In this document: in pieces, positions 1 through 64,000 of the stretch | Layout: each line of letters begins with the position of its first letter | How positions within the stretch are numbered: the first letter of the stretch is position 1 | DNA from: an uncultured bacterium | GTDB lineage: Bacteria; Omnitrophota; Omnitrophia; Omnitrophales; Aquincolibacteriaceae | Length of the DNA: 64,000 bases | Reading direction: 5' to 3' | NCBI GenBank assembly: GCA_964482725.1 | Contig: CAYZYT010000009.1 | Location: 19,832-83,831 of the forward strand | Program-made: the position numbers and the translations under genes | The notes under the pieces: generated by a model | Database searches by the model: none | Seen by the model: only the letters and a program-made list of their open reading frames with translations | Told to the model about the DNA's origin: nothing

Positions 1-44
1 AACTCATCGAGACGGCCGCTCCCGCACTTTCTGAAAAATATCAG

Positions 45-19427: not shown

Positions 19428-19477
19428 GGCAGTCCCAATACTTATCAATTTCAGCGAAGCAGAAATTGGGGCAGTCC
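19428..19477 (+). repeat. Dispersed copy of 12-bp-stem hairpin family (GGCAGTCCCAAT-N25-ATTGGGGCAGTCC)
   Basis: Same arms and loop start (ACTTATCAAT) as the tandem triple at 44808..45029. Confidence 0.6.
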
Positions 19478-19551
19478 AAACTGCCGTTTTGGAAAAGAAA
19501 TGAAAAGTTTGGACAGCCATGCTCAATCGTCTATTTTTACAAAAGAGGATT

Positions 19552-36437: not shown

Positions 36438-36458
36438 GCCGTTTTTGGGTCATTGCTA

Positions 36459-36488
36459 TTGACAATTTTTTAGGGCCTATGATATAGT
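36459..36488 (+). promoter_or_regulatory. Sigma70-like promoter TTGACA-18-TATAGT
   Basis: Located in 95-nt gap upstream of 36532 CDS. Confidence 0.45.
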
Positions 36489-36531
36489 AACGCCTCGCGA
36501 ATTTTCCTAACCTGAAGATTGTAAACGACTT

Positions 36532-39552: not shown

Positions 39553-39565
39553 CGAACGAGGACTT

Positions 39566-40093: not shown

Positions 40094-40103
40094 GGTCTTT
40101 TCC

Positions 40104-41057: not shown

Positions 41058-41117
41058 GTTGCAACACAAAAGGGGACAGGCATCAATGGCTTGCCTGTCC
41101 CCAAAAGTGTTTTGAGA

Positions 41118-41381
41118 CTATTTTTTCTTGAGTTTTGCGAGGAAAAGCGCGATGCGGGATTTTCTCCGGTCTGCGCGGCCGTGCGGGATCACCCCTTTGG
41201 TGACCGCATGATCATAACGGGCAATCAACGTTGCGGCGACGCCCTGGGCCTTTTCGGGCTCTGCGGCGAGTTGGGCCAGTTTTTTGCTGAGAGATTTCAG
41301 CTCAGAAAGAACCGCCATGTTTTTTGCGCGTTTTTTAGCATCACTTCGAATACGTTTTGCAGCGGAACGAATATTGGGCAT
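41118..41381 (-). CDS. rpsT: 30S ribosomal protein S20
   Basis: MPNIRSAAKRIRSDAKKRAKNMAVLSELKS...GVIPHGRADRRKSRI; 87 aa. Confidence 0.85.
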   Translation of the reverse strand: MPNIRSAAKRIRSDAKKRAKNMAVLSELKSLSKKLAQLAAEPEKAQGVAATLIARYDHAVTKGVIPHGRADRRKSRIALFLAKLKKK

Positions 41382-41484
41382 TTCGATGACTCCTTTAGGT
41401 GAAAAAAGTGGCGACAATGTAACACGGGGCTCCTGTTCTGTCAATCCGCATCCCCAAGGACAGAAAAGCGGAAAACATCATCTC

Positions 41485-44584: not shown

Positions 44585-44807
44585 TCTCTTGTTTTAAGTT
44601 GTCTGTCGAGAATAAATCGCTGCATTGGCGCTATGCGCTGCTATGAATCGATAGTTGCATTTTAGGCGATTTATAACATTTTAAGCCGCCTCAAGGTCCG
44701 ATTTCCTGCCGAAATAAAATCGTTAAATTTCACAAAAAAAGAGGCTGTGCCCTTGCGGATGTCCGATTATGTGTTATCTTTTCATAAGACTTTAGAAATC
44801 AAAGAAT

Positions 44808-45029
44808 GGCCGTTCCAATACTCATCAATCCCAGCTTCCGAAAAGATGAAATTGGGGCGGCCATAACGACCATTGTTGTAAAAAAATAGCACGTTAAGGC
44901 CGTCCCAATACCATGCAATCGAAGCGTAGCTGAGATTGGGGCGGTCTTGACTACCGTTCAGTAAAATAAATCTGAAGTCAAGGCCGTCCCGATACATATC
45001 GATTTCACGGAGTTGAAATCGGGGCGGTC
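44808..45029 (+). repeat. Tandem array of three ~50-nt hairpin units (GGCCGTyCCrAT-N24-31-ATyGGGGCGGyC) with ~35-nt palindromic spacers
   Basis: 12-bp stems perfect only when G.U pairs allowed (plus-strand RNA); copy 3 carries compensatory CCCGAT/ATCGGG. Confidence 0.7.
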
Positions 45030-45074
45030 GTAATTACCATTAGTTAAAAGAAATAAAAATTACGGCCGAGGCAA

Positions 45075-48000
45075 ATGATCCAAAAAACATCTGCACACAA
45101 GACGCTCATTCCACGCTTTTTCCTCAAGGCGATCAGTCTGTTTACGGTAGTCGTTTTCCTCGGAACTTCCTTTCCGTCCCAGACTCTAGCGCAGATGCCT
45201 TCTACTTCCAATGTTACGGGAGGGATTGACGCCAGTCTTCTTGCCTCGGCCTCCGCCACAAGCGGAAAAGTGCAGGAGATCGTCATCCCTTCCGAACTTG
45301 GAACGATAAGCGAAGCTTATCGCGGGGAACGGGGAACGATGAACGTGGAACGTGGGGCCGAAAACGTTAGCCGTTCCCCGTTAGCCGTTCCCCGGCACGG
45401 CCGTATGGTCGTGCTGATCCAAGACGCTCACGCGGTTCCCGATGCCCAGAGGTCCGTTGAAAAACTGATCGAACATCTCCAGAAAGAATACGGCGTCACG
45501 ACCGTAGCGGTGGAAGGCGCGGAAGGGAAGCTGGACCCCACGCTTTTCCGCCTGTTTCCTGATGCGGAAAAAAGAAAAAGCATTTTTGAAGATTATCTTG
45601 CGAGCGGAGAACTTTCCGGCGCGGCGGCGGCAAGCGTGCTTTCGCCTTACACGGCGGACTATGTCGGGATGGAAGACTGGACGCTTTATCAGGACGGGGT
45701 AGCGGCGTTTCTGGCCGGCCTTGGAAAGCAGGTCGATCTCAAATCTCACATCTCAACTCTCAAATCGGAGCTGCAAAGGCTTAAAACAAAATACTATTCA
45801 GAGGAGGCGCTGGCATTTGATGCCAAACTGGGCGCATGGAATGAAAAACAGAATAATTTGACGGAGCTTTTGAGCTATCTTGCTAAGTTCGTCGAGGTCA
45901 ACGCGCAACGCACAACGCTCAACGTATTATTTGAGGCGTTGGCGCAAGAGAGGAAGGCTGCCCCGAAGCTTGAATCGGAAGTAAAACAGCTTGCCAAGTA
46001 TGTCCACGAGACTGCGCCGAGTGCGAAACTGAACGGACTGGTCCAGGATTACCGGACCGGGCGCTTATCCCTCGCGGCTTTTGCGTATGAGCTTACCGAA
46101 CTCATCTCTGGCAACAAGTCCGTCATTCTGAGCCCGAAGGGCGAAGAATCTCAAAAAAGAGATCCTTCGGTTTTGCCTCAGGATGACGTGAAGATTGTTG
46201 TTTCGGCTGAACTCCGATCGATCATCCAAAACCACGAAAAACTCGTTCAGATGAAAGGGCCTGCATTTATCAAAGAGCTGGAGGCTTTCGTGGAAGACGT
46301 CCGGGCAAAACTTCATACGACACCGGAAGCGAAGGCGGTTGCCGTGCTGGCCAAGCAGTTGCAGCTGCTGGAGAAGCTCTCAACGTTTGAATTGTCGCGG
46401 AGCGAATGGGAAGAACTACGAGCGGGGAACGGGGAACGGGGAACGTGGAACGGGGATGAAAGTATCGATATCTCCCAAAAAAGGATCCTCGATCTTTATC
46501 ACGCACCGCTTGTGGCCGATTTTCTTTCTTTTTATGAAATAGCAATTAAACGCGAAGCCGTTTTTAAGGAGAAGCTTTTTGACCTGTTAGGCGTTAACGT
46601 TTCCCGTTTCCCGTTACCCGCTCCCTACGCCACAAATTCTGTCGCATTTGTGGCGGGCGGCTTCCATACAGGCGGCCTCGCGGCGAAACTCAAGGAACAG
46701 GATATTCCCTATGTCGTCATCTCGCCGGCGATGAAAGAAGTGCCGCAGGACAATCGCTACTTTGAACATATGCAGGGCAAGGTGTCGTGGCGTTCTTACT
46801 TTAAACCGCATAGCGGACGGATTGATCTATTTGATGCCTTTAACCGTGCTACGACAGAAAAACTTTTAGGGGGTAGGGGACAGGGGATAGGCGATAGAAA
46901 ACTAAACCCTAAACCCTATACGCTATACGCTAAGGAATGGCGCGATTCGATCATCCGCAATCTTGCCGCCTCCGGCCGTGTTGCGGAACATGCAAAATAC
47001 ACACATTTCATTGACGAGCAAGCCGCCGGAAATTCCGAAGAGTTTCAGGGGCTCAAACAAACCTGGACCGCGAAACTTGAGCGATTCATCGAAAAACTGC
47101 AGTTCCTTGGTAAGAACAATCAGATCAACGAAGCGAATGTGGCGAAGTTGCTTTCTCAGCCAGCCAACCAGACGCCTTATGCGGTTCCCCTGGTTCCGGG
47201 TGCGACCATTCCCGAAAGCTTTTCAGGAGGTGAACGTGCAACCCACAGGGGCTGGACAGAAAGCGTTCTGACGGACAACGCGCAGCGAGAAATACGAAAA
47301 CCTGAAGCGTTGACCCCTGACCGTAAAACGTTGCCTGCGGCCCAAGGCCGACGTTCCGAGGTGAGAATCTCAGGGGCGAGTCGAGCTGGGGAGAATCTCG
47401 CCCATGATGTGCGTCCGCAAGTTTCGATTGTCATTGAAACGACGCTCAGGGATGAGGTTTTTTTGAACCAACTCGAGAAATATTTTTCCTCGGAGAAGAG
47501 TTCGGAGATCAACAAACAAGTGATCATCGCCGTCGACGGGCGCAGTCAAGCGCTTCAACGCGAACGTTTTGAAAAGCTCAAACGACTGATCAGAGGATTT
47601 GATCCCGAGAAATCAGTTTCCCATGTCCAGTTCGTGCTCGTTCCCGGAACGGGGGCCGTGGGACAGGGGATCCGGAACGGGATTGCCGTTTCGACCGGGG
47701 ACGTCGTTGTTTTGGCAGATGATCGCGCGCCGCTAGACGACGAGATCTATCTTGCTTTGGCGTCACCCGTTCTTCAGAAAAAATCAGAGGCAGTCTATGA
47801 TGCGTCCGGTCTTTACTCGGCGATCAAAACGCGGACGATGAAAGAAGTGCGGTGGAGCAAACGCGGGCCTTTCAGAGACGCAGAGATCAAAGCCAAATTT
47901 GAGCGTCTTGCTTATAAAGCTCAAGTATCTTCCGTTTTATCGTCCGAAGAGCAGGCGCGTATTTCTGCTCGCCCAGGTGTCTCAATTTTCGAGCGCGTTC

Positions 48001-51000: not shown

Positions 51001-54000
51001 TGGCCAAGCTGAATACCGACGATGCGGTCTACGATCAAGCCGTGGATCTTTTTCAGTATTTCGGTCGGGTTGCGCATGATTTTCCGGCGGGTCCTCCGTC
51101 TCCTTCTTCAGCCGAAGGCCGCCGTTCCGAGTTGCGGAAGGGCGAGGATGTTCTTCTCCCGGAAGTTTCGGCGGAAGGGAAGTCTGAAATTGAAAAATAT
51201 CTTTCCGGAAAAACGCTCATTCATTCTGTTTTTGAAGGGGGCGGGGCGAAAGGGGTGGCCTATGTCGGCGCTTTGGAAGAGCTGGAATCGCAAAACATGT
51301 GGTTTAAGGAAGTGGCCGGCACCTCGGCCGGGGCGATCACGGCGGCTTTGATCGCGGCCGGGTATACGTATCCCGAGATCAAAAAGATCGTTTTTGAATC
51401 CGACTTCAACCAGTTCAAGGACTTGCGGTGGGGGATCGTTCCGCCTTGGCTCAATCTCATGGTCTTTGGGGGCTTGTACCGCGGCCTCGCGTTTGAAAAA
51501 TGGATCGCCGAAAAACTGAAGGACAAGCTCGGCTTTGAGCCGGTGTTCAAGGACCTTCCCATTCCGCTTTCGGTCGTCTCGAGCGATATTTCCAACAAAG
51601 ACATGCTGATCCTCGATAAAGATACGGCGCCCGACCTCAAGGTCGCGGAAGCCGTGCGTATGTCGATGGGCATTCCGTTTTTCTTTGAAGTTTACCGCTG
51701 GCTTGGGGCTTATAAGCGCTTTCCGCTTGCGGTGCGTCGCATGGTCGACGGGGGGCTCCTAAGCAATTTCCCGCTTTTTATTTATGACGAGGCGGGAAGC
51801 AAGGGGGAACCGGTCGTCGGTTTCATGCTTCAGGAAATTCCGCACAAGAAAGAAGCCTCAAAAGGCTGGATTAGCAAGCTGCTGGCTCTCCTGAAATATC
51901 TTCCGGCGTTTCACATAGCCTCGGCTGTGATCGAAACGGCGCTCCAGGGTCAGGACAACCGTCATATTGAAGATGATGTGTGGGCCAAGATCGTCAATAT
52001 TCCGGTCGATGTTGGGACTTTGGATTTCGATCTGACGCTTGCGCAAAAAGAAGAATTGGCGGCACGCGGCAAGGAAGCCACCCGGAAGATCCTCGGACTT
52101 GCGCTTCGCGGTGAAAAAGGGAAAGATTCTGAAGTTTCGGTTGCTTCAATTCGATCCGAAGTAAGGGGAAAGAGTGCTCCGGATGCGATCACCGGCCGTC
52201 GGATCCCTGTTTCCAAGCAGCTGCTCCTTCCGGATTGGGCGCGGGGTTTTATTGATGCCCGTCAGGGAAATCAATACAGAACGCCAGACGAGCGCATGGC
52301 CGTGGCCGTGGAGTTGTCACGGCTGAATGTCGAGAACCATACCGGGGGACCTTTCGGGGCCGCGATCTTTGAGCGCGAAAGCGGGCGTCTCTTTGCCATC
52401 GGCGTCAACCGCGTGGTGCCTCAAAACAACTCGATGGCTCATGCCGAAATGATGGCATTCGTGATGGCACAGGCCCGCCTGAGAAAATTCACTCTCGACA
52501 GGCCGGGGCCGGGACTTGAACTCGTCACCAGCGCACAACCTTGCGCCATGTGTTTCGGAGCGACGCCGTGGTCGGGGGTCAAGAGCGTTGTGATTGGCGC
52601 GCGTGGGGAAGATGTGGAAAGCATCACGGGTTTTGATGAAGGTCCAATCCATCCGGAGTGGCAGAAGGAACTTGAAAGCCGCGGGATCTCGGTTCAACGC
52701 GATGTATTGCGTGATGAAGCGATCGCGGAACTGCGCAGCTATGTCGAACAGAACGGCGTGGTCTATAACGGCCGCTTATCGGCGGCTGAATCAGTGGATG
52801 ATAAACAGGAAGTGAAGTCTGATGCCTCTGTCCGATCGGCATTGGAACCCAATCCCACAGGGACTTCACAAAACGCCGTGTTCCAAACGCTTCGGCAGGA
52901 ACATGCGGACGGTAGGGATTCTCAAGAATCCCACAGACCGTACTTGGCGGAAGGACCGACAAGTAATGGTTCTGTCCGATCCGAAATCCGGAAAATGTGG
53001 GTCAAGGTCGCCGTGGCAGTCGCGGCGGGTGGACTGCTCGTAAGCGGGGCTTTTTTGCTCGACTCTTTTTTGAAGACCTTTCTGACGATCCTTTTTGTCG
53101 TGAATCCGATCGGTTCGGCCGTCACATTTGTTTCGATGACCGGGGAAATGAAGGATGCGGGGAAGCGGGAAAGCCTTTCCAAAAAGTCGCTTATTGCCGC
53201 CACAGCGGTTGGGGCGTTATTCCTTTTTTCCGGCAACCTCCTTTTTGATTTTATGGGGATCACGCTCGGAACCTTTATGATCGCCGGCGGGGCGCTTCTT
53301 TTCACGATTTCCCTCACTTCTTTGACAGCTTCGACGAGCGACAAAAGGGTCGATCCAAACGAGATGGGAGTCGTTCCTCTGGGTATCCCGCTTATCGTCG
53401 GTCCTGCGACGCTTACGACTTTAATGATCCTCCGGGGCCAATACGGCTGGCCGGTCGTGATCGCCGCTTTCCTTGCGAACATGTTCCTGACGGCCATGCT
53501 TTTCCGTTATTCCGGGAAAGTAATCGCTGTGCTCGGGAAGGAAGGCGCCAAGGTCATCGGCAAGATCTTTAATCTGCTTCTTGCGGCGCTCGGCGTCACC
53601 TTGATCGTGAAGGGCCTTTTGACGGTTTTTCCTGGCCTTCATTCCGATACCGTGCGCCCTTTAAGTCTTCCGAAGGACAAGCCGGTCATTGAATCCTCAT
53701 CGCAACCAGGGGCGAATATCCGTTTTGAGCATGCCCGCTTCGATCTGCTGGCAAAGCAGTCTGGATCCGTTCCGCCATCTCGTTCGGAGGTTAGAGAAAA
53801 TACTTCCGCTGACTTTCAGGAGCTGTCCATTCACAAAGGGAAGCAGGTCTCGGAGATTTTGCGTGCGATGGGCCGGCTCGATCATACCAAGGTCTGGGGA
53901 GTGACAAGCCGCGGCGTTCTGCAGATCAGCTGGGGGGACTGGATCGAGCATGAAATGAACAATGCCATGCAGCTTCTTCTTTCCGGCATGGATCTTTATC

Positions 54001-57000: not shown

Positions 57001-60000
57001 ATGACCTTGCTTCTCTCTCTGCGGATGTTCATCAAACGTCGGCCGAGGCGGACCAGGAAGGCCGTGAGGCCGGTGAAATTGCCGGAGAATTGAAAGCCAG
57101 GCTTGAAGGAGAGAACCCGAGGATCGACGGCCTCAAGGGCCGGGCGCAGCAGATCCAGGCTAAAATGGAAAAGATCGATAAGTCCCTCGAGGACATGGTG
57201 AAGGAACTGCAGGAAGCCCGGCGCCATGCGGACGGTCTTCAAAGCAGTGTCAATCAGGTGGCCCGTCGCGTGGAATCTCCGATGCCGCAGATTTCGGCGG
57301 AGGGTGGGTCGACCGCGGGATCAACAGGTTCCGGGGATCCCGGTGCTCATGGCGCGGCGCCGAGCGATAATCGCGAGAGAGCCATGAATGCCAGGGCCGG
57401 CAGCAGGAGCTCCACGGGGATCGAACGGCATCATTCCGTGGATAGCGCGATCGCGGAGCAGATGAAGCGGTTGCTAGCAGAGCCCGAATATCAGGTCGAT
57501 CCGGAAACCATGCGTCTTCCTGCGAAAACCGTCATTCCTCGGATCACGAACAGTCAGTCGGCGGTCTACCAGGCGATCCGCAAGCCCTCGATCCAGTTCG
57601 AGGCGACGCTGCGGAGCAATATTTTGAATGTACTTCACGAACTTGAAACGAGCCTGCTCCTTGCGAACCAGCGGAAGGGACGCATCAACCCGCGGGCCCT
57701 GACCCGGGTGAACACCGGCGATCAGCGGATCTTCCAGCTCAAAAAAATCCCTGACATCAAAAAAATGAGGCTCACGCTTCTGATCGACGTGAGCGGCAGC
57801 ATGTACTCGGACGGCGGCAATCTGGATCTTGATGCTTTCAATCCAGGAGCGCTTGTCGGGAGTAACAGGATCAACAGCGCCATCCGGACCGCGGTTATGT
57901 TTATGGAAGCCTTCGGCAACGATGAGGATATCGAACTTGAGATCATTCTTGTGGCAGACAATGCCCGGATTGAAAAGCCCTTTGACCAGCCGGTGACCCC
58001 TGAGTTTGCTTATCAAGTCGTTTCCAGGATCCTGCATCACAACCTGGGAGGCGGAAATGCCGATCTGAAAGGGCTTAAGCTCGCGGTCGAAAGCCAGGAC
58101 CTTCGGGAAAAAGAAGCCGGCGTTCAACCCAAGATCATTGTGATAGTTGCGGACGGAGGCATCAACTATACGGATAAAGAGGGGATTGAAAAAACCCTCA
58201 CGACTCGCAAAGACATTGCCTGGCTGCCCACGGGAATCGGTCCCGCGTCCGCGGACGTCAAAAATGCCTATGCCCCTTACGGAGAGGTCGTCGATAGCGT
58301 CAATCAGCTCCCTGAAAAGATCGGAGAAAGATTACAGACACAGATCGAGGCGATCGTGGCGGGCGTCACAGGACGCAGTGAGTTGCGGGATCCGCAGCGT
58401 TTCGAGAACTTCAGCGCGTCCATGGTCGAAGCTTCGCGCAATCTTATGAAAGACGGATTTGACTACGTCACGGAGGACGGGAAAACCTACCTCGTTGTTT
58501 CGCCGGAGACGGACGGAAGCCAAAAATATCCTGATTTCAAGGTGCCGGTGCGGGATGGCGTGAGCAATCTGCGCAAGGAGTCCTTTTATGCGTCGCCTAC
58601 CAATATCCGCGATATCACGAAGATCATTTTGAGAGCGCATGATCAGTCGCTTGACCGCACCGCGCTCAACGTCCAGGGAGACGCCGGATCGGGTAAAAAT
58701 AAGAAGATCTATCACGCGGCCCGTCTCATCGGACAGAATGTCCGCTTCATGGCGCTCCATGATGACATCCACGAAGATGACCTTGTGGAGCGGCGGGGGG
58801 TGAACGAACGCTCCGACGGGAAAACCGACTGGATCCCTTCGGCAATTGTTGAAGCCATGTTGAAAGGGGAATGGGTGATCCTCGACGAATACAACAAAGC
58901 GAAGCCGGAAGTGCTCGCCCGCCTCAATCAGATCATTCAGTCCCGCACCGTGACTTTGCATGACGGAACCAAGGTCAAGGCCAAAGAAGGCTTTGCCATC
59001 ATCCTGACCAGTAATCCTCCGAGCGGTTCGGGCGACGCTGCGGTTTATTCGGTCGCGGCGACCTCCGGCGAGATGCTCGACCGTATTCGTACGATCAATA
59101 TTGAATATTTACCGGCGCAGGAAGAACAAGCGCTTCTGTTTTGGACGCTCATGAAAGAGCGCAAGCTTTCGAACACCGACAAGATCAGCCGGGAAGAGCG
59201 GGAATTGATCCTTCAGCTGGTTTCGGCCGCAAATATCAACCGTACCATTTATAACGGGCAGAATGAGTCGGGCCAGAAAGGCACCGGGCGCGGCAGGAAC
59301 ATCGCGCGGCCGCTGTCGACCCGTTCTCTGGTCAATATCCTCAAGCATATCGCGGAGTTTCCCGGTGAGATCCACCGTATGAAATCGGTGATCAAGCGTT
59401 TTTACTCCTACGAGTGGGAAAAACAGGATCAGATCCTGCGCGTCGAAGAGATCTTCAACCACTTCGCCAGTTTAAATCGGGATATGCCGCTCCTGTTTAA
59501 CGAGGAAGATCTCAAAGGACCTGTTTACGGGACGAATGCCCGGGGGAAGCGCGTTCTAAAGTTTAAAGGCCTCGAAGTGCCGGTGAGCGACGATGCTCCG
59601 CAAAGTCTTGAGGAGATACCGCTTGAAGACCGCGTGATGTGGACGCCCACCAATCTCCGGTATCTCTATGATTGCCTCATGGATTTCAAAAAAGGAAGGC
59701 ACATGCTTTTCATCGGCGAGGCCGGAACGGGGAAAGACGTGATCGCGGAATACGTTTCGTGGCTCCTTTACGGTCCGAAAGTCGAGACCTTCGGCGTGAC
59801 GCGCAATGCCATGGTGGAGGATCTGATCGCTTACCTCGGGCTCGGGGAAGGCGAAAGGATGGACAAAGGCGGCATGGTGATCGCGGCCGGGAAGAACGAA
59901 ACGGGGCTTGTGCCGGCGTATGTGATCCGCGCGATGAAAGCAGGCCGTCCGGTCATTCTGGACGAGATCAACAAAGGGAAACCGGAAGTTTTTGCGGTCA

Positions 60001-63000
60001 TGAACAACATTCTCGAAGAAGGCTGGATCGATCTGGCCAACGGGCAGAGGATCTATTCAGAACCCGGATTTTTGATCATTGCGACCATGAACCCCGACAG
60101 CAAACGGACGTATATCGGCAACTATCGCCTGTCGGGAGAATTCATTGACCGGTTTTCCGCTCATAAATTCGATTATCTGAACCGGGAGGAGGAGATCCGT
60201 ATCCTCCGGGATTTTAACCAATACATCCGCAAGTCATCGCCCGATGCTTACAAGAATTTCAGATCTTTGAGAACGGAATTCATTGGGGCGCTCGTAGCCA
60301 TGACAAGCGTTCTAAGGCAGAAATACCAGTCTCAGGAAATCCCGCATCCTGTTTCGATGCGGTCGCTTAAAAAACTGATCGTGACCTTATCCCGGACGCC
60401 GCGGGAGTATTTTGACGCATTTCCCGCCTTGCTTCGCGAGACCTATGTGTTTGAAGACCCCGTTCATAATGAGGCCGTTCTTGCCGCCGCGGTCCAGGCC
60501 GGGTTGCTGCAGCGGCAGCGCGATCTGTACGTTCCCGCGATGGAAGAGATCATCGCCGTGGATATCGCAACAGGCGATGCGGCTCTGGACAACCTCCTTG
60601 TGGATTTGCGTGATAACGGGATCGATGCCCCGAATGTGATACGGATCTTGTCAGCGCTGGACCGGTTCTTGCACGTGCAGATGAAAGATCTGAATGAGAA
60701 TCAAATCCTCGAATTTAAAACCGTTTTTCAGGCGCTGTACGATTTCCGCGTAGCTCGCAAAGGAGTTGCCTGCGTTCAACTGGCCGGGCAAATTCAAAAG
60801 CGCCTGGCCGGCACCCAGACATTCGAGGGCTATGTCCCGGAACTTACAGGCGAGATCCCGATGACCGGTCACTGGGATTTTTCGTCTTCCGTTCATCCCG
60901 AGATCGCCATGTATGCCCAGACGGTCACGGGCATCCTGACCGAAAAGCGGGCGCGATCGAAAGAGCCTTTCTTTTTTACCCGTATTAACGGCCGCAATTT
61001 TCTCGTGGTCCCCGAAGGCACGAAATTCAGCGATATCGAAGAGGTGCTGCGCGTGGAAGGTGTGGAGATGTACGGGGAGCAAGTGCTCGGAAGTCCCGAA
61101 GCGGGTATCCGTCTTCAAAGCGCCTATCAGCTGATGAAGTATCTTCGTGGTTTGAATGTCGGCAAAGAGGCGGTTTTGCCAGACGTCGATCCCAAGGGAA
61201 TCCTCCGCATCGGGGAAACTGAATGGAAGACCATCGCCGAACTCGGCTTGACCCCGGCCTGGGCGCGGAATATGGCGGTCTTTCTTTCCACCGAGCCGAT
61301 CGATGCCATTCTGAAGGAATCTGCATTCCGAGCGGCCGGCCGGGAGCTTATGGCTGCGAATTTTGACGAGCAAAACCGCAAGATCCTCACGACGGTATTG
61401 AAGCTTCAGAACATTAAACCGTTTGATGCCGCGAAGCTGAAGGAACCTCTCATCAAGGGTAAGGCGGATTCCTCGGAGCTTCTGGAAGCCATCAGTTTGA
61501 TGGGGGAATTCAACGACGGCTACCTCGCTGAACTCAAGAGTCTGATCTGGGCTGACGGCGCACCCCTTGTTTATTGGGCGGAGGATGTCCGGGAAGATAT
61601 CGGCCTTGTGACCGAGGTGATCAATGGACGGCAGTTCTCCTACCTTGTGCTGTCTGCCGGATTAAAGGCCAAGATGGACGATTTTGTTTCGGGCATGCTG
61701 AAGCGGAAGGAAAGGACCGCTATCACGGGTTTTCTTTACCTGCTTCTGGTCGATCTCATGACTGACGATGCTTCCCGCGGCGATGCGGATCACGCGTCGG
61801 AGTTTACGGTTGAGGGCAAGATCAAAGGATTTTTTAACCGCGCCTTGGCCTATTACCGTCTGAAGTCAAAGGCCCCCGCGGAATTTGAGGACTGGTTAAA
61901 GATCTACGGCCGCCCGGATTATCAGGCATGGTCTGAGTTTGTCCAAAAATTCACGGAAGAAACCTATATGAGCGATGAGGCGATCAGCGAAGCGGTCCGG
62001 GCTCTTTTCCCGGAGCATACCGACCAGGCGAATCTCGTGGCGGCGCTCGGAAGCCTGCTCCGGGGCTATGGCACATCTGTGTTCAGCGAGTTGAGCCAGG
62101 TCCGCACCCAGCTTGCCTGGACCCGCAACCAGCTTGAAACGGGGCGTTTAACCCGTCCGGGGCCTGAGATCAAACTGCCCGAGGAGTCGGGTCTTGAGCT
62201 GGAATTTTTGAAAATGGTGAACAAGCGCAACACCAATTTTGAGGCCCCTCATGTGATCTCTTACCGGGTCGGAGAAGACGTTTACGCCGCGTCGATCTCC
62301 CGGTCCGGGCAGGGCGGACTGTTCCAGTTCATGCGCCAGGGGAACGGTGCTTACAAAGTCACAGAGATGAATAATGATCACGAGATGATGACTTTCCTGC
62401 GCGGCATTTTTAAACGGGATAAAACAGGATTTCTTGGATCTTATACTCTCGCGGGGAAAACCCGTTTTCTCACGAAGGATCACACCGTTCCGCGTGAATA
62501 TGAGATCGATGAAACCGGCAAGATCCGTGAACTTGAAACGCGGGAGTCTTTGCTGCTTCAGGCCCTCCTTAAAAACCATCCGCCCAAAGAAGAAGAGAGT
62601 AAAAAAGGGGGTGTTTGGGAGAAAAGTATTAAGTGGCTGCGCTCCGTCGGAAAAAATAATCAGCCGATCAATCTTTTCTTGGCCTATCCGCTCGGGGAAT
62701 CGCTACGGTTGGTGAGCTTGGGACAGGACGGGAAGGCCTTCGAATATGAGTATAACGCGAAGGGAGCCTTCCGCGAGCTGGATGCCTCGGAGCCGGGGTT
62801 TGCCGACGTGCTGCGGACCGAACATGGCCGGCAGGTGAACGGTTTGGCGGATGTCTTTAGTTTTATGCTTGGAGACGAGGTGCGTTTTCAAGTGACGGGG
62901 TTTATGGGAAGCAATGTCCAACAGTATCGTCTGGATAAGGATTGGAACCTGGCGCCAGTCGCTGCGGACAAAAATGCTTTGACGGGTCTCATCGTCAACG

Positions 63001-64000
63001 GAGGCGGGAGAGGGCAAAGCTATCGGGCTTATCCGATCGTTCTGGGAGACCGGACCATTCATTTTTTAACGGCGGGACTTGGGACGAAAGTAGTCCTGCT
63101 CCAGCCCCATGTTGAAGATGTGGGCGGCGTTCAGGTCATGGAGCGCCGAGCGAAGGCGCTTGAAGCCCGCAAAGACGAACTTGAATCGGAGATCGGCGCC
63201 CTGGGATTTCTCGTCCAGCGTTCGGAAGTGCGGACAGAACTGCTGTCGGCGGTAGCGGCTGCGGCCCAGCCGTGGGTACCGGTCCTGAAAAGTTTTATTG
63301 CCAGCTCATCGCGGCCGGTAGAAATGGCGATTTTATTCTCTCCGGTGGGGATCGTATTTCTGGGGCTGGCTCGGGGCTATTGGCTGAGCGGCCGGGGGAA
63401 GGTCTCATGGATGTCGCAGAGCGGGGAACAGGCGGCAGCGATCATCCGGGGGATGCTCTGGGGAGCGCTTTTTGCTTCGGCGGCGCCTGTCGCAATGATC
63501 TTTAGAGGCTGGGAGCAAAGTCGGTCCGGAGTGCTTCCTGAAGGTAATATCCTGGGGTGGCTGCCGGATTATTTCATCGTGCTCTGCGCGATTCAGCTCT
63601 ATACGACGGCAGCTTCGCTTTGGGCCTCTCCTCGAAAAATCAATCATAAGCTTCGTCTGTTTATTGCGGGCGTGGTCCCTGTGGTTTATACCGCAGCCGA
63701 ATTCCTTGTGCCTCTGAGCGGGGCGACCGGCATTGGAGCGACCTTCAGTTGGTACGATGTCGGAGCGATCTGGCTTGCGATGGGGACGAGCCTGTTTTTC
63801 AATGCTCAGGAAAAAACAGCGGAAAATCCTAACGCCGTCACTCAACCTGTTCTGCCCTTGCTCGGCGAGAGCAACGCAGGTCAAATCACCCGTTCAGAAA
63901 CTCGGAAAAACATTGCGCAGGCCGAGATGCGGGATAAGGTGATCCGGCACGGTTTTTTTGGGCTGGCGGTGATCGCGGGTACGGCGGCTGTTTTTACCGT
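45075..64000 (+). CDS. Giant multi-enzyme protein, >6300 aa, 3'-truncated by window end (2xGT2, IMPase-like, kinase-like, patatin, CMP/dCMP-deaminase-like, MarC membrane, coiled coil, vWA, 2xAAA+, C-terminal TM)
   Basis: Frame 0 open from stop TAA at 45054 to window end. All track ORFs in 45-64 kb are in other frames. Frame relation verified against track ORFs at 46339, 55780, 63272. N-terminal signal/TM MIQKTSAHKTLIPRFFLKAISLFTVVVFLG. Confidence 0.8.
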   Translation, partial: MIQKTSAHKTLIPRFFLKAISLFTVVVFLGTSFPSQTLAQMPSTSNVTGGIDASLLASASATSGKVQEIVIPSELGTISEAYRGERGTMNVERGAENVSRSPLAVPRHGRMVVLIQDAHAVPDAQRSVEKLIEHLQKEYGVTTVAVEGAEGKLDPTLFRLFPDAEKRKSIFEDYLASGELSGAAAASVLSPYTADYVGMEDWTLYQDGVAAFLAGLGKQVDLKSHISTLKSELQRLKTKYYSEEALAFDAKLGAWNEKQNNLTELLSYLAKFVEVNAQRTTLNVLFEALAQERKAAPKLESEVKQLAKYVHETAPSAKLNGLVQDYRTGRLSLAAFAYELTELISGNKSVILSPKGEESQKRDPSVLPQDDVKIVVSAELRSIIQNHEKLVQMKGPAFIKELEAFVEDVRAKLHTTPEAKAVAVLAKQLQLLEKLSTFELSRSEWEELRAGNGERGTWNGDESIDISQKRILDLYHAPLVADFLSFYEIAIKREAVFKEKLFDLLGVNVSRFPLPAPYATNSVAFVAGGFHTGGLAAKLKEQDIPYVVISPAMKEVPQDNRYFEHMQGKVSWRSYFKPHSGRIDLFDAFNRATTEKLLGGRGQGIGDRKLNPKPYTLYAKEWRDSIIRNLAASGRVAEHAKYTHFIDEQAAGNSEEFQGLKQTWTAKLERFIEKLQFLGKNNQINEANVAKLLSQPANQTPYAVPLVPGATIPESFSGGERATHRGWTESVLTDNAQREIRKPEALTPDRKTLPAAQGRRSEVRISGASRAGENLAHDVRPQVSIVIETTLRDEVFLNQLEKYFSSEKSSEINKQVIIAVDGRSQALQRERFEKLKRLIRGFDPEKSVSHVQFVLVPGTGAVGQGIRNGIAVSTGDVVVLADDRAPLDDEIYLALASPVLQKKSEAVYDASGLYSAIKTRTMKEVRWSKRGPFRDAEIKAKFERLAYKAQVSSVLSSEEQARISARPGVSIFERVRGVLVQAFYSFIPPRSFYYGQYEFEKSMEAMARLPRLAEGEKRKVSVVISSRSGKRFFSPNEEDEGQDALRVKVEQLQTLFALNASYEWELVIVDDASPGGKTGERIAQKAKELFPEFFRSGKIRIIFSKDKKSQKGGGILFGMKDALSRSADYLVYTDVDLSADLRLIGSLLEPIVSTGVGITIGSRGHPRTRIIGKGSFRNISSVIYNSLARFILPIGKIRDTQAGFKAFSRETALAIVPEAKDVGFSFDTDLLLLAMEKGYKVEEIPVYWKDSQVGTSVSVYLWALHMTTGLLEQRIRMSERVLARPGIQPRAVLSILVSRAAIMAIRGIQSFIRAYRRVKSLIPDRPSFKAVPVPGAFELHEAVLDKRTTQEFSEKARVIVSQAGKNLAGFRERIASMDVKTKTEQGLGNRTPVTEADEALQRFIVSEIQRVFPGHFVIAEEKIEDEILRKNRENENSDYVWILDPIDGTKEFLNPGSDYYGISLALYYKGLPVLAVVHSPHFGMIETSSERSGVYLNGEPVRVRQESSIRDRHVVIDDAPQKILGSILAVGKGWKSVSHNTRSVVLNLVGMAASGQDAMAPDLFWKGGDRGPLLWDIAAASYLLKKAGGIAFSVEQGRVVEVEQAIRETILDPAQRGRHFSVLAGTPEAVLAAANALQRNLGGGMSQSTKSQDLVVERVTADQKISAVHFHYDFEIPGNQIAFPIGHAVKPQAPVLLQFKEGSFVFKKVSDSRSRAQYVVSYQKALKQSGLLSVPGLIPLKGRAGQAADDFLVELSDGYYALEEALLQGLEISYAKANLKQFEDLGALIAVFHNTSEGFELEGKKSENPLIAIVDRQKDFETLGIALRIKELMKGTAHLARGEKLFLKNYPMLISQLEILRAHLPGSRYDALPKAFVPADLSLHNMRFSGDGSSALSVYDFGKLRYQPRLEDLKNPAMSLGPEKGRTYNLDVLNAIVRGYQSAAREPLTAEELEALPEFIRGTFLWQYAGWFFLEMAKLNTDDAVYDQAVDLFQYFGRVAHDFPAGPPSPSSAEGRRSELRKGEDVLLPEVSAEGKSEIEKYLSGKTLIHSVFEGGGAKGVAYVGALEELESQNMWFKEVAGTSAGAITAALIAAGYTYPEIKKIVFESDFNQFKDLRWGIVPPWLNLMVFGGLYRGLAFEKWIAEKLKDKLGFEPVFKDLPIPLSVVSSDISNKDMLILDKDTAPDLKVAEAVRMSMGIPFFFEVYRWLGAYKRFPLAVRRMVDGGLLSNFPLFIYDEAGSKGEPVVGFMLQEIPHKKEASKGWISKLLALLKYLPAFHIASAVIETALQGQDNRHIEDDVWAKIVNIPVDVGTLDFDLTLAQKEELAARGKEATRKILGLALRGEKGKDSEVSVASIRSEVRGKSAPDAITGRRIPVSKQLLLPDWARGFIDARQGNQYRTPDERMAVAVELSRLNVENHTGGPFGAAIFERESGRLFAIGVNRVVPQNNSMAHAEMMAFVMAQARLRKFTLDRPGPGLELVTSAQPCAMCFGATPWSGVKSVVIGARGEDVESITGFDEGPIHPEWQKELESRGISVQRDVLRDEAIAELRSYVEQNGVVYNGRLSAAESVDDKQEVKSDASVRSALEPNPTGTSQNAVFQTLRQEHADGRDSQESHRPYLAEGPTSNGSVRSEIRKMWVKVAVAVAAGGLLVSGAFLLDSFLKTFLTILFVVNPIGSAVTFVSMTGEMKDAGKRESLSKKSLIAATAVGALFLFSGNLLFDFMGITLGTFMIAGGALLFTISLTSLTASTSDKRVDPNEMGVVPLGIPLIVGPATLTTLMILRGQYGWPVVIAAFLANMFLTAMLFRYSGKVIAVLGKEGAKVIGKIFNLLLAALGVTLIVKGLLTVFPGLHSDTVRPLSLPKDKPVIESSSQPGANIRFEHARFDLLAKQSGSVPPSRSEVRENTSADFQELSIHKGKQVSEILRAMGRLDHTKVWGVTSRGVLQISWGDWIEHEMNNAMQLLLSGMDLYLLGWGKDNLVTAREGWDKAEDFLMIHKAWREAVRNNFSEVIPKVHSPVAGSSRELALDRIEQPYYFMRTVFIDSPDAENNRELYIRFVDRLENVLMWFGGQVAQEVDKYEKANGPLSPKGAELFSDSRKGRSEVRDDKPLASKTVRLQIPKGIFKSMAQQPAGEPSRPDTAVAGPGPEQAEKSLKKRAVKSTPLIESLRGYYSAREKMLKAIKQGDSLVYEENLFAMAKFSRETVSLDKKKSAIEDAVEELRTSGEESFKTELIGDGLEITRVLSDEFSSVEKEQLSQAYGEFLQALGYDAVNRETLVRELMLITYPLTLMDLMPKSIKDFQTKPRALMDVFQAFESVAFAEGRGALGALIGGDVLDHDLGIHLIKQDDEVLLRSVALHEVTHYLARKNLLPFDVSSEIITQAVTMVILFHGMPYKKAVTAFEGFGSLSKEIVEQAKEDVRKKRRLMEPEELMDWVHKMIVLHKPELLHAPQDAFRDMQERFAGMYLGAYGFFVTENKSESDSLRYVIHYGSKNLPKVNHADYSRKLSSRDWEYIHKVLARLQAIAEVILQEDGIKFTARLKKDMRNMAGVRWYYNQEEHTFYYVPWDILEYGEEGSEGMLLTELFRQMYSRMEFIEGDYDTPEFRLLYGLLDTHRVVGEGIKEFSGREEAVKKFFEKKIRILNLETEKERMAQNPLFVQFSEGVFYYLATDFAESSAKNDPRITNAKVLYALTESYPAILQATALKDEKFYQWIRDEIWPHVKPLIDEDLKKLFDEMMEDEMLRQLLEEQMKEGGEMPDMPGMPGMPGMGQGRGEGNTQAGDLDPEMKAKLQKMLKEKLASMTPAEREAFLKKVKEAYQKQLRKQTDQMSDVTGQTPSSMQPGVGQPSPEQVKAGLSQVANALRGLADQVEGIKGNAGEISSSAGQASQGAAGVSEQADTLSAKPEEMSKGAMQPMDQSLGGLMDKIKALREKTFEFNRKAREIDDQANAFGNIGDAVQDQMKQLLDHADDLASLSADVHQTSAEADQEGREAGEIAGELKARLEGENPRIDGLKGRAQQIQAKMEKIDKSLEDMVKELQEARRHADGLQSSVNQVARRVESPMPQISAEGGSTAGSTGSGDPGAHGAAPSDNRERAMNARAGSRSSTGIERHHSVDSAIAEQMKRLLAEPEYQVDPETMRLPAKTVIPRITNSQSAVYQAIRKPSIQFEATLRSNILNVLHELETSLLLANQRKGRINPRALTRVNTGDQRIFQLKKIPDIKKMRLTLLIDVSGSMYSDGGNLDLDAFNPGALVGSNRINSAIRTAVMFMEAFGNDEDIELEIILVADNARIEKPFDQPVTPEFAYQVVSRILHHNLGGGNADLKGLKLAVESQDLREKEAGVQPKIIVIVADGGINYTDKEGIEKTLTTRKDIAWLPTGIGPASADVKNAYAPYGEVVDSVNQLPEKIGERLQTQIEAIVAGVTGRSELRDPQRFENFSASMVEASRNLMKDGFDYVTEDGKTYLVVSPETDGSQKYPDFKVPVRDGVSNLRKESFYASPTNIRDITKIILRAHDQSLDRTALNVQGDAGSGKNKKIYHAARLIGQNVRFMALHDDIHEDDLVERRGVNERSDGKTDWIPSAIVEAMLKGEWVILDEYNKAKPEVLARLNQIIQSRTVTLHDGTKVKAKEGFAIILTSNPPSGSGDAAVYSVAATSGEMLDRIRTINIEYLPAQEEQALLFWTLMKERKLSNTDKISREERELILQLVSAANINRTIYNGQNESGQKGTGRGRNIARPLSTRSLVNILKHIAEFPGEIHRMKSVIKRFYSYEWEKQDQILRVEEIFNHFASLNRDMPLLFNEEDLKGPVYGTNARGKRVLKFKGLEVPVSDDAPQSLEEIPLEDRVMWTPTNLRYLYDCLMDFKKGRHMLFIGEAGTGKDVIAEYVSWLLYGPKVETFGVTRNAMVEDLIAYLGLGEGERMDKGGMVIAAGKNETGLVPAYVIRAMKAGRPVILDEINKGKPEVFAVMNNILEEGWIDLANGQRIYSEPGFLIIATMNPDSKRTYIGNYRLSGEFIDRFSAHKFDYLNREEEIRILRDFNQYIRKSSPDAYKNFRSLRTEFIGALVAMTSVLRQKYQSQEIPHPVSMRSLKKLIVTLSRTPREYFDAFPALLRETYVFEDPVHNEAVLAAAVQAGLLQRQRDLYVPAMEEIIAVDIATGDAALDNLLVDLRDNGIDAPNVIRILSALDRFLHVQMKDLNENQILEFKTVFQALYDFRVARKGVACVQLAGQIQKRLAGTQTFEGYVPELTGEIPMTGHWDFSSSVHPEIAMYAQTVTGILTEKRARSKEPFFFTRINGRNFLVVPEGTKFSDIEEVLRVEGVEMYGEQVLGSPEAGIRLQSAYQLMKYLRGLNVGKEAVLPDVDPKGILRIGETEWKTIAELGLTPAWARNMAVFLSTEPIDAILKESAFRAAGRELMAANFDEQNRKILTTVLKLQNIKPFDAAKLKEPLIKGKADSSELLEAISLMGEFNDGYLAELKSLIWADGAPLVYWAEDVREDIGLVTEVINGRQFSYLVLSAGLKAKMDDFVSGMLKRKERTAITGFLYLLLVDLMTDDASRGDADHASEFTVEGKIKGFFNRALAYYRLKSKAPAEFEDWLKIYGRPDYQAWSEFVQKFTEETYMSDEAISEAVRALFPEHTDQANLVAALGSLLRGYGTSVFSELSQVRTQLAWTRNQLETGRLTRPGPEIKLPEESGLELEFLKMVNKRNTNFEAPHVISYRVGEDVYAASISRSGQGGLFQFMRQGNGAYKVTEMNNDHEMMTFLRGIFKRDKTGFLGSYTLAGKTRFLTKDHTVPREYEIDETGKIRELETRESLLLQALLKNHPPKEEESKKGGVWEKSIKWLRSVGKNNQPINLFLAYPLGESLRLVSLGQDGKAFEYEYNAKGAFRELDASEPGFADVLRTEHGRQVNGLADVFSFMLGDEVRFQVTGFMGSNVQQYRLDKDWNLAPVAADKNALTGLIVNGGGRGQSYRAYPIVLGDRTIHFLTAGLGTKVVLLQPHVEDVGGVQVMERRAKALEARKDELESEIGALGFLVQRSEVRTELLSAVAAAAQPWVPVLKSFIASSSRPVEMAILFSPVGIVFLGLARGYWLSGRGKVSWMSQSGEQAAAIIRGMLWGALFASAAPVAMIFRGWEQSRSGVLPEGNILGWLPDYFIVLCAIQLYTTAASLWASPRKINHKLRLFIAGVVPVVYTAAEFLVPLSGATGIGATFSWYDVGAIWLAMGTSLFFNAQEKTAENPNAVTQPVLPLLGESNAGQITRSETRKNIAQAEMRDKVIRHGFFGLAVIAGTAAVFT
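45322..45395 (+). repeat. Heptamer-tandem element H1: (GGGGAAC)x2..-(CGTTCCCCGTTAGC)x2, in-frame
   Basis: Encodes GERGTMNVERGAENVSRSPLAVPR. Confidence 0.6.
46121..46188 (+). repeat. Nested palindromic element (GTCATTCTGAG family), in-frame inside giant gene 2
   Basis: CGTCATTCTGAGCCCGAAGGGCGAAGAATCTCAAAAAAGAGATCCTTCGGTTTTGCCTCAGGATGACG; encodes VILSPKGEESQKRDPSVLPQDDV. Confidence 0.8.
46424..46622 (+). repeat. Heptamer-tandem element H2: (GGGGAAC)x3 ... ~140 nt ... (CGTTTCC)x2 CGTTACC, in-frame
   Basis: Encodes AGNGERGTWNGDE ... VNVSRFPLPAP; parallels H1. Confidence 0.6.
46866..46935 (+). repeat. Heptamer-tandem element H3: TAGGGGG TAGGGGA CAGGGGA TAGGCGA TAG - AAAACT - AAACCCT AAACCCT ATACGCT ATACGCT
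   Basis: Arms are imperfect inverse complements of CTAnnCC heptamers; in-frame (GGRGQGIGDRKLNPKPYTLYA). Confidence 0.6.
47420..47760 (+). other. Domain: GT2-like glycosyltransferase (partial/divergent)
   Basis: VSIVIETTLRDEVFLNQ...VVVLADDRAPLDD. Confidence 0.4.
48130..48900 (+). other. Domain: GT2 glycosyltransferase (DPM1-like)
   Basis: VSVVISSRSGKRF...WELVIVDDASPGGKTGERI...LVYTDVDLSADL...DTQAGFKAFSRE. Confidence 0.65.
49250..49900 (+). other. Domain: inositol monophosphatase family
   Basis: VIAEEKIED...YVWILDPIDGTKEFLNPGSDYYGISLAL ... WDIAAASYLLKKAGG. Confidence 0.65.
50050..51050 (+). other. Domain: APH/choline-kinase-like phosphotransferase fold (tentative)
   Basis: FVPADLSLHNMRFSGDGSSALSVYDFGKLRY resembles HGDLxxxN...IDF catalytic/DFG-like loops. 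Confidence 0.3.
51225..52050 (+). other. Domain: patatin-like phospholipase
   Basis: VFEGGGAKGVAYVGALEEL (GGGxKG), GTSAGAITAALIA (GxSxG), MVDGGLLSNFP (DGG). Confidence 0.75.
52330..52640 (+). other. Domain: CMP/dCMP-type zinc deaminase
   Basis: MAHAEMMAFVMA...(24)...SAQPCAMCFGA (HAE...PCxxC). Confidence 0.65.
53000..53640 (+). other. Domain: MarC/UPF0056-like integral membrane region (6 TM)
   Basis: FLKTFLTILFVVNPIGSAVTFVSMT ... MGVVPLGIPLIVGPATLTTLMIL. Confidence 0.5.
57770..58330 (+). other. Domain: von Willebrand factor A (MIDAS DxSxS)
   Basis: LTLLIDVSGSMYSDGG ... KIIVIVADGGINYTD. Confidence 0.6.
58650..59110 (+). other. Domain: AAA+ ATPase (AAA_5/MoxR/midasin-like) #1
   Basis: GDAGSGKNKKIYHAARLIG (Walker A) ... 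EWVILDEYNKAKPEVLARLNQIIQSRTV (Walker B) ... IILTSNP. Confidence 0.6.
59700..60200 (+). other. Domain: AAA+ ATPase (AAA_5/MoxR/midasin-like) #2
   Basis: MLFIGEAGTGKDVIAEYV ... PVILDEINKGKPEVFAVMNNILEEGWIDLANGQRIYSEPGFLIIATMNP. Confidence 0.7.
63270..64000 (+). other. Domain: C-terminal multi-TM region of giant gene 2 (continues beyond window)
   Basis: MAILFSPVGIVFLGLARGYWL..., LFASAAPVAMIF, YFIVLCAIQLYTTAASLW, FIAGVVPVVYTAAEFLVPL. Confidence 0.5.

Follow-up and report, generated by a model that had tools for sequence, protein, structure and literature searches.

Giant open reading frames (ORFs) are a published hallmark of the bacterial phylum Omnitrophota (Seymour 2023, PMC10066038), and the giant multi-enzyme proteins of these bacteria already form a defined class, the 'multi-enzyme metabolic cluster' (Nielsen & Lui 2026, bioRxiv 10.64898/2026.06.07.730766). 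The cleavage points of giant proteins have been stated to be not known (West-Roberts 2023, bioRxiv 10.1101/2023.11.21.568195). Here we describe a giant gene, g2, that begins at position 45075 on the + strand of a 64,000-nucleotide stretch of contig CAYZYT010000009.1 (assembly GCA_964482725.1), referred to below as the window, and that runs past the window end. The modules of g2 are separated by a recurrent pentapeptide, R-S-E-Φ-R, and are preceded by a conserved N-terminal module, the head. Both features escaped the first-pass annotation of this DNA, and together they give a testable polyprotein model: in our reading, to which we assign a probability of about 0.55, g2 encodes a signal-peptide-led polyprotein that would have R-S-E-Φ-R as its cut site and the head as the likeliest candidate for the protease.

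With the giants of these three studies g2 shares its phylum, many Pfam domains per chain, a signal peptide and/or transmembrane (TM) segments, poor conservation and suspected processing. In line with the class of Nielsen & Lui, it lies in an Omnitrophota genome, carries at least eight distinct Pfam families in a single open frame with no one repeat dominating, and shows by hydropathy at least 10 hydrophobic segments together with an N-terminal hydrophobic signal. The length threshold of that class is 10,000 residues; g2 has at least 6,308, being incomplete in the window, and is probably shorter than 10 kaa (thousand amino acids), since a complete orthologue (P0121) has 6,089. The published giants have at least 10 kaa (or more than 30 kaa), with a C39 or S8 peptidase proposed as a possible processor, whereas proteins of the present family mostly have 1-8 kaa. 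Two of the giant-gene papers, West-Roberts 2023 being one, say nothing of a polyprotein, a linker or a delimiter motif, and R-S-E-Φ-R and a TIKI-like head are likewise absent from the published descriptions. Full-text literature searches for the motif strings gave no paper on such proteins, and no paper was found that connects Omnitrophota with TIKI or with TraB. The delimiter and the conserved head appear to be undescribed.

Outside the phylum, the MARTX toxins are secreted proteins, likewise very large, and combine a conserved chassis, reshuffled effector cassettes and a built-in protease that cuts the linkers between cassettes; g2 and its relatives show variable cassettes and conserved linker sites in their sequences. 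MARTX toxins differ in their inositol-hexakisphosphate-activated C80 cysteine protease cutting after Leu, their RTX repeats and their type I secretion, none of which turned up here, and the cargo here is largely of a housekeeping type. No RTX-type and no Peptidase_C80 Pfam match was found in g2, in the other giant ORF of the window (g1) or in the closest related locus (L001). The TIKI fold of the head is also that of the MARTX effector RRSP, but in MARTX the TIKI domain is cargo and not the processor. The flavivirus NS2B-NS3 sites, (K/R)-R↓(G/S/A), and the potyvirus NIa sites are viral polyprotein cut sites. Viral polyproteins also derive many products from one ORF by means of a short conserved site and a protease on the same chain, and the putative P1 Arg with a small P1' residue would be flavivirus-like; in g2 a short conserved site lies at nine junctions, and there are 694 instances in 150 relatives. 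In contrast to the viral systems, the present family is cellular and chromosomal, its putative protease has another fold and its cassettes are hypervariable. The gingipain/HagA polyproteins of Porphyromonas, which are secreted, yield catalytic and adhesin domains through cleavage behind Arg or Lys. Unlike the present family, gingipains are C25 cysteine proteases whose set of domains is fixed, and they lack both a conserved pentapeptide and a diverse enzyme cargo.

The g2 frame, its delimiters and its cassettes

Frame +3 of the + strand is free of stop codons from 45057 to 64000 (6,314 codons), and the gene continues past the window edge. The first ATG, at 45075, has GAGG ahead of it and opens a basic and then hydrophobic N-terminus, MIQKTSAHKTLIPRFFLKAISLFTVVVFLGTSFPSQTLAQ; counted from this ATG, as all residue numbers of g2 are here, the protein has at least 6,308 residues. 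A codon-usage log-likelihood trained on the ordinary genes of the window preferred this frame in 18 of 18 one-kb windows, therefore g2 is coding throughout, with host-like codon usage. The first-pass annotation had described a second giant gene of more than 6300 residues starting at 45075, in a frame open over the final 18.9 kb and missing from the ORF list merely because it runs off the window. Each of these statements held, and no in-frame stop was found in 45075-64000.

The possibility that g2 is an artefact, either of unrelated genes mis-assembled into one or of a DNA-level cassette array whose junction happens to read RSExR, is very unlikely. In its favor, short-read assemblies break within these genes, and an independent Logan assembly of the same organism (L002), identical to window positions 36097-46149, confirms just the first 1,075 nt of g2; beyond these, the support is indirect and comes from giant orthologues at syntenic positions in the L005 and L008 assemblies. 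Against it stand the 18.9 kb without a stop and with a coding signal in one frame throughout, the agreement of two independent assemblies of a relative (L001 and L005, with 4 mismatches over 12.5 kb) and the complete 6,089-residue orthologue in the same synteny. Additionally, the codons of the motif vary synonymously (Ser AGT; Arg AGA/AGG), hence there is no conserved DNA junction. Thus, g2 is a real giant gene joining unrelated enzymes.

The pentapeptide R-S-E-Φ-R stands between modules nine times in g2 and eight times in g1, where 0.23 occurrences would be expected for both; with 13 more in the orthologue on L005, the three ORFs hold 30 against 0.36 expected. The pattern RSExR is absent from the 8,505 residues encoded by the normal-sized genes of the window, occurs zero to two times in each of the other five reading frames, and gains one additional match in 14,642 residues when relaxed to [RK][ST][ED]x[RK]. 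For the wider family, an exhaustive HMMER search with g2 residues 1-790 found 6,614 cluster representatives at E<=1e-3 (580 at E<=1e-30), and the family statistics given here refer to the best 150 of the 6,614, which comprise 483,636 residues at <=50% pairwise identity. These 150 head-bearing representatives contain 694 RSExR against 12.4 expected, and in an unbiased count RSExR came first among the recurrent gapped 5-mers for most of these proteins, whereas unrelated control proteins had 1 in 96,655 residues (1.2 expected).

The residue Φ is L, V, A, M, T or I, and the fixed positions tolerate little change, with 696 Arg to 37 Lys at position 1, 696 Glu to 14 Asp at position 3, and Arg at position 5 almost never replaced by Lys. 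Position 2 is enriched for Ser (57-fold), then Ala (8.5-fold), Pro (4-fold) and Thr (3-fold); [A/S/P/G] precede the motif, [S/T/A] follow it and aromatic residues are excluded. Some lineages favor RAExR, RTEMR, RPEAR or K[SA]ELR. Five Arg, five Ser and two Glu codons are used to write the motif (among them AGT for Ser and AGA and AGG for Arg), and the DNA flanking its instances is unrelated and not conserved; therefore, selection acts on the peptide and not on the DNA. The same observations led us to reject a DNA repeat, an adapter or a recombination or junction scar as the source of the motif. Internal translation restarts were also rejected, as a GGAGG-like spelling occurs in a minority of motifs and no start codon follows at a fixed distance. 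A phosphorylation site or a self-cleaving Ser nucleophile is unlikely, since Thr is a rarer substitute for Ser than either Ala or Pro.

A composition profile of 840 sites shows lowered hydrophobicity in the 35 or so residues ahead of the motif and a recovery within about 10 residues behind it, and across the family TM helices directly after delimiters are about 3-fold enriched. In five members (P0129, P0135, P0143, P0152 and P0160) the delimiter is doubled, and the short spacers between the two copies are shared among proteins, one of about 17 residues ('LAS.KPSTAQ.VRPSAS') and one of about 13-15 ('P.SN.FGT..GTG'). Such spacers could be released peptides or binding sites, and the conserved stretches of 13-17 residues resemble the spacer peptides of polyproteins. 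Two multi-module Omnitrophota proteins that have no head, P0001 (L006 10001-13783) and P0006, are also without RSExR; they carry other strings at apparent module boundaries (AASLG three times in P0001, SSSPV twice in P0006), which may be further lineage-specific delimiters or chance.

The delimiters divide g2, along the + strand, into a head and a train of cassettes, whose domains were assigned with Pfam. Delimiter 1, RSEVR (residue 760; 47352..47366), opens cassette 2 (47367..51122), a stretch of 1,252 residues with no delimiter inside that contains a weak GT2-like match (about residues 781-905, E 0.009, below the cut-off), a GT2 domain (1060-1178), an IMPase domain (1362-1600) and an APH kinase-like match (1701-1936, E 4e-4, below the cut-off). 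Delimiter 2, RSELR (residue 2017; 51123..51137), at which a block of similarity to L001/L005 begins exactly, leads to the patatin-like phospholipase of cassette 3 (51138..52151; patatin at residues 2052-2234). It is followed by delimiter 3, RSEVR (residue 2360; 52152..52166), the guanine/cytidine-deaminase-fold enzyme of cassette 4 (52167..52976; dCMP_cyt_deam at residues 2406-2508), and delimiter 4, RSEIR (residue 2635; 52977..52991), with a TM helix directly after it. Cassette 5 (52992..53780) is a MarC-family membrane protein (MarC at residues 2663-2851) with one extra N-terminal TM helix and seven hydrophobic segments by hydropathy, and delimiter 5, RSEVR (residue 2903; 53781..53795), marks the end of similarity to the relatives.

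Cassette 6 (53796..54389) is an orphan of 198 residues without a Pfam or Protein Data Bank (PDB) match, closed by delimiter 6, RSEVR (residue 3106; 54390..54404). Cassette 7 (54405..58373) comprises an orphan region with an HEVTHY (HExxH) motif at 55164, a PDMPGMPGMPGM tract at residue 3764 (56364), a coiled-coil-like region and a VWA domain (residues 4234-4373). Past delimiter 7, RSELR (residue 4434; 58374..58388), cassette 8 (58389..63218) holds two AAA_5 (MoxR/dynein-type) ATPase domains (residues 4533-4653 and 4877-5012) and about 1,000 residues of orphan sequence, so that a vWA protein and a MoxR-type ATPase adjoin; vWA and MoxR-type ATPase pairs are usually encoded by neighboring genes of an operon. 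Delimiter 8, RSEVR (residue 6049; 63219..63233), is followed by a 219-residue membrane cassette 9 (63234..63890, by hydropathy), the hydrophobic segments of this C-terminal part starting at residue 6081, and then by delimiter 9, RSETR (residue 6273; 63891..63905), and the hydrophobic start of cassette 10 (63906..64000), which leaves the window. The order of domains read in the first-pass annotation was reproduced by Pfam, and most of the domains with it, the first GT2 and the kinase-like domain being weakly supported and the others firm; HEVTHY is present as claimed, three nucleotides from its given position of 55161. The HEVTHY region was considered as a built-in protease and dropped, as it is an orphan with no homologues detected and no Pfam or PDB match. 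No homologues were found for the C-terminal 1,159 residues (5150-6308), and neither 54405-56354 nor 60522-63998 had a detectable homologue among 5.8 billion clustered proteins; judged by this search, these are lineage-specific orphan cassettes.

Comparison with relatives indicates that evolution adds, deletes and reorders whole cassettes at the delimiters. The sole relative in the genome collection, and the closest locus (L001), is the metagenome-assembled genome of Candidatus Omnitrophota bacterium isolate ELA295, of which L005 is a second assembly. The giant ORF on L005 is syntenic (MurJ, UvrC, giant gene) and open for 5,471 codons, P0121 on L008 is a complete syntenic orthologue with 17 delimiters, and UvrC precedes the giant gene in all three; the normal-sized gene downstream of P0121 encodes a protein from which the motif is absent. 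BLAST blocks of similarity start or stop at delimiters: the head (L005 1-673 to g2 1-725, 50% identity), the MarC cassette (718-923 to 2635-2903, 53%) and the patatin cassette (1314-1661 to 2017-2360, 84%), which is placed differently in L005. Sets and order of cassettes differ among the three orthologues, P0121 having just the head and the MarC cassette in common with g2 and several cassettes in common with L005, and the MarC cassette is bounded by delimiters in both L005 and P0121. The g2 cassettes beyond the head are rarely found in other family members; where found, they stand in other positions and are bounded by delimiters. As an observation in its own right, the high identity of the patatin cassette (51138-52151 to L005 9128-10169), compared with that of the heads and MarC cassettes, suggests recent exchange or much stronger constraint.

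The cassettes also look like complete proteins in their sequence. No delimiter falls inside any Pfam domain of g1, g2 or L001, and the median cassette of the family has 292 residues. Residues 2-73 of a g1 HPr cassette align to residues 2-71 of free-standing HPr (87-88 residues), the residue next to RSEVR corresponding to HPr residue 1-2 and the catalytic His falling at position 15, its place in native HPr. The g1 receiver cassettes and one HAD cassette of L005 start their conserved N-terminal strands 4-10 residues past the motif. In the deaminase cassette, residues 38-205 align to 26-192 of the 197-residue chain 2g84 (E 1.5e-48). A pattern-based count of domains starting directly after delimiters gave too few matches and is not used as evidence.

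The head module and its family

The N-terminus of g2 (45075..45194, + strand) has, on inspection of its sequence, the features of a Sec-type signal peptide or anchor, with a positive n-region, a hydrophobic core at residues 11-29 and a T-L-A↓Q site. The head follows at residues 107-695 (45393..47159, + strand), and residues 696-759 (47160..47351, + strand) form a disordered linker into the first delimiter, with a predicted local distance difference test score (pLDDT) of about 30 in both AlphaFold2 models. The model of the head, built from a 19-sequence alignment, has a confident core (predicted template modelling score 0.63), and the second model, through residue 800, again gave pLDDT of about 30 for the delimiter region. 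The core is a parallel beta-sheet flanked by helices, as in the TIKI/TraB/erythromycin-esterase/ChaN hydrolases; the relatives listed for the head, with the figures beside them, were ChaN 8.9, EreC 8.9, HopBA1 8.5, a TraB-family protein 8.5 and RRSP, an endopeptidase of MARTX, 7.6.

The residues D117-x-H119, E147 and H531 stand out in this fold: every one of the 147 aligned heads has H119, E147 and H531, and 145 of them have D117. In RRSP, which has been placed in the superfamily with ChaN, HopBA1 and Bcr135-type proteins, the 2His/2Glu set consists of E3900, H3902, E3930 and H4030 (PMC6254334). The spacing from His to Glu is 28 residues in the head, the same as from H3902 to E3930, and Asp replaces the first Glu of the set. 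The head shares fold and 2His/2Glu-type residues with the TIKI/TraB/PrgY/erythromycin-esterase/ChaN superfamily, but it is much larger, with about 590 residues and long helical insertions. At the level of sequence profiles it is remote: the window head matched none of the Pfam clan models TraB_PrgY_gumN, Erythro_esteras and Cofac_haem_bdg at E<=1, a profile search against the PDB returned nothing significant, and Cofac_haem_bdg (the ChaN model) matched 2 of 19 head homologues, with a best E of 2e-4. From the model and its conserved residues, we take the head to be a divergent, probably active TIKI-type hydrolase. The fold by itself does not mark it as a peptidase, and we know of no member of this superfamily that processes a polyprotein.

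In the family, the match to the head is always N-terminal, and no component other than the head is present wherever the motif is. A delimiter lies within 120 residues after the head end in 129 of 143 members (median 46 residues), against 24% expected from the density in the cargo, and just 4 of the 694 motifs fall in the first 600 residues, the heads. Sec-type N-termini were seen in 96 of 142 members and an AxA-like site in 84, as read directly from sequence. About 40% of members have no TM segment after the head, therefore head and cargo share a compartment there. The three lineages that use R-P-E-x-R are all substituted at positions 116-118, next to the catalytic His, compared with 7 of 144 others (Fisher p = 2e-4, post hoc); these three heads are 25-37% identical. 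The pattern hints that motif and active site co-vary.

The first-pass annotation had pointed to an Omnitrophota-type lineage and to giant multi-enzyme genes as a hallmark of it, and both points agree with what was found here: the closest relative is ELA295, the nearest module homologues are from Omnitrophota, and so are five of six family members whose organism is named, the outlier being labelled Verrucomicrobiae. Separately, four head-bearing members are poor in the motif (P0270, P0265, P0205 and P0180). Of these, P0270 is labelled Verrucomicrobiae and has Q116R, and P0265 uses HPELR and has Q116K. Such members may mark the edge of the system or an altered specificity.

Proposed processing of the chain and its alternatives

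Our proposal is that g2 encodes an Omnitrophota cassette polyprotein, of which at least the first 6,308 residues are seen here, composed of a signal peptide, the head of about 590 residues and a variable train of cassettes, self-contained enzymes, membrane proteins and ATPases, each of which would end in a flexible linker terminating in R-S-E-Φ-R. The pentapeptide would be the recognition site for cleavage of the chain, which would free the cassettes as separate proteins. The cut would most likely fall just after the second Arg, leaving the downstream cassette with a near-native N-terminus and the upstream product with a linker tail, and the composition profile of the 840 sites supports a cut at this C-terminal end of the motif. 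The best candidate for the endopeptidase is the head, which may at the least release itself at the delimiter found behind it in 90% of members. A built-in processing system of this kind is the simplest account of an exposed invariant pentapeptide at each junction together with an ever-present hydrolase on the same chain. The parts of the proposal differ in strength. That the motif is read by a conserved partner is very probable, that it is actually cleaved has, on the sequence evidence, somewhat better than even odds, and the identification of the head as the protease is tentative, with the odds leaning against it.

Several points weigh against this proposal. The ORF, the motif with its statistics, the selection on it as a peptide, its position at the boundaries, its co-occurrence with the head, and the fold and invariant residues of the head are observations, from which cleavage is deduced by sequence logic. 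The head, following a signal peptide, is probably extracytoplasmic, yet kinase, GT2, AAA+, HPr and receiver domains need cytoplasmic substrates, and the 7-TM MarC cassette between the head and the AAA+ cassettes may place the head and some delimiters on opposite sides of the membrane. Cassettes of 1,252, 1,323 and 1,610 residues contain several domains with no internal delimiter, so that not every domain is separated, and HPr and receiver domains also work inside fused proteins elsewhere. For the head itself, Foldseek found nothing significant in the PDB, AlphaFold gave no sign of the first delimiter docking on it, and esterases and haem binders are found within the TIKI fold as well. The test for co-variation was picked once the data had been seen.

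Some of these points would be accommodated if the chain were an uncleaved, membrane-anchored scaffold of beads on a string, which would bring many enzymes together and in which R-S-E-Φ-R would be a hinge or a docking motif for a partner such as a chaperone, an assembly factor or the head. Published work does treat such proteins as single membrane-anchored polypeptides (10.64898/2026.06.07.730766), the topology problem of cleavage by the head would vanish, fused HPr and receiver domains are generally known to function within larger proteins, and the models show only a disordered linker. We nevertheless consider a scaffold unlikely, as a passive hinge needs no four invariant residues across proteins whose linkers are otherwise unlike. 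The order of cassettes is permuted among orthologues, which argues against functions that depend on neighbors, and both the conserved spacers between doubled delimiters and the near-native N-termini directly after the motif are what a processed chain would be expected to have. Release of the phospholipase, deaminase, glycosyltransferase, kinase and phosphatase cassettes in or on a host or prey cell, from a chain exported whole as a multi-effector weapon like MARTX, is a proposal about purpose that is compatible with the cleavage model and is suggested by the Sec-type signal before the head, by the members without TM segments after it, and by the patatin and deaminase cassettes, which are typical effector types. 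Omnitrophota have been inferred to be predators or episymbionts, with giant proteins linked to attack on a host, and Nielsen & Lui put the multi-enzyme content on the extracytoplasmic face (10.64898/2026.06.07.730766). Such a weapon is rather unlikely given a cargo of HPr, PtsI-like, receiver, RidA, HAD and MarC modules and MoxR-type ATPase/vWA pairs, which resembles housekeeping and signaling proteins, and given the absence of Pfam matches to RTX repeats, a C80 protease domain or a recognizable translocation module.

The chain might also be cut at the motif by a separate protease encoded elsewhere, the head then being an extracytoplasmic esterase, a sensor, a ligand binder, or a module for export or anchoring. 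The signal peptide and the placement of TM segments suggest that the head and much of the cargo can be separated by the membrane, the Ere esterases and the haem binder ChaN are examples of TIKI-fold proteins that are not proteases, and a P1 Arg with a small P1' residue generally suits many unrelated Arg-specific proteases. This explanation is distinctly unlikely in our view, since the head is the sole component always found with the motif, is itself followed by a delimiter in nine of ten members, and shows the hint of co-variation with the motif. A protease among the neighbors of g2 was also considered and rejected, as no protease gene was found in the 64-kb window.

Genomic setting and implications

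The leader of g2 contains three elements, all on the + strand. A promoter-like block, TTGCGG-N16-(TG-T)-TATCTT (44753..44780), is conserved in an alignment of the three orthologous leaders (window, L005 and L008); its fit to an extended -10 consensus was judged by eye, a simple consensus scan made no call, and its role as a promoter is an inference from sequence. Three tandem hairpin units of about 85 nt with arms GGCCGTCCCAAT / ATTGGGGCGG were located by a repeat search at 44806..45035. They fold strongly in alternative registers (RNA fold z = -7.4), and a fourth copy lies upstream of mnmA at 19428-19480. A dedicated regulator of the giant gene was rejected, as the orthologous leaders hold 3 (window), 1 (L005) and 0 (L008) copies, the fourth copy precedes mnmA and no Rfam family was matched; the hairpins, palindromes of about 55-85 nt with compensatory changes among copies, are an insertion resembling repetitive extragenic palindromes and lie outside the core of the system. 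The block for ribosome binding and start, AATTACGGCCGAGGCAAATG (45058..45077), has its last 12 nt the same in all three orthologues.

The other giant ORF of the window, g1 (3..12437, + strand), has at least 4,144 residues with eight delimiters and cassettes of cytoplasmic-type signaling proteins, namely a PtsI-like PEP-utilising domain, two HPr and four response-regulator receivers. It stops at 12437, with a tRNA-Glu next. Its N-terminus is outside the window, where any head module would be out of view, and BLAST found no similarity between g1 and g2. Nearly all genes of the window are on the + strand and the GC skew is positive in every 2-kb bin, which is consistent with the leading strand of one replichore carrying both giant genes. 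The ordinary genes encode LeuRS, a GH35 enzyme, ComEC, a BamD-like TPR protein, LptE, HolA, MurJ and UvrC, with three tRNAs; an exact look-up of the window UvrC returned no record, its called start probably differing. The protein encoded at 20785-21321 (+) joins a bactofilin domain to an HTH_17 DNA-binding domain at the C-terminal end, a combination that is apparently unusual.

Whether bacterial giant proteins act as one chain or give many products is a stated open question, and the pentapeptide, present in hundreds of protein clusters and tied to the head, makes it testable. The delimiter gives a rule for cutting such ORFs into units for annotation and structure prediction, by which many 'dark' stretches can be handled as separate orphan proteins. 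Should cleavage be confirmed, this family would be one of the few instances of cellular genes expressed as polyproteins, and the TIKI fold would gain a new role. On a wider scale, Omnitrophota may have a phylum-wide chromosomal polyprotein system of hundreds to thousands of genes, with a TIKI-type endopeptidase head and reshuffled cargo on a chain cut at R-S-E-Φ-R, a possibility that we place somewhat short of even odds. Such a system would be a cellular counterpart of viral polyprotein expression, possibly serving the export or delivery of enzyme sets to a host, and would supply the missing cleavage map for bacterial giant proteins.

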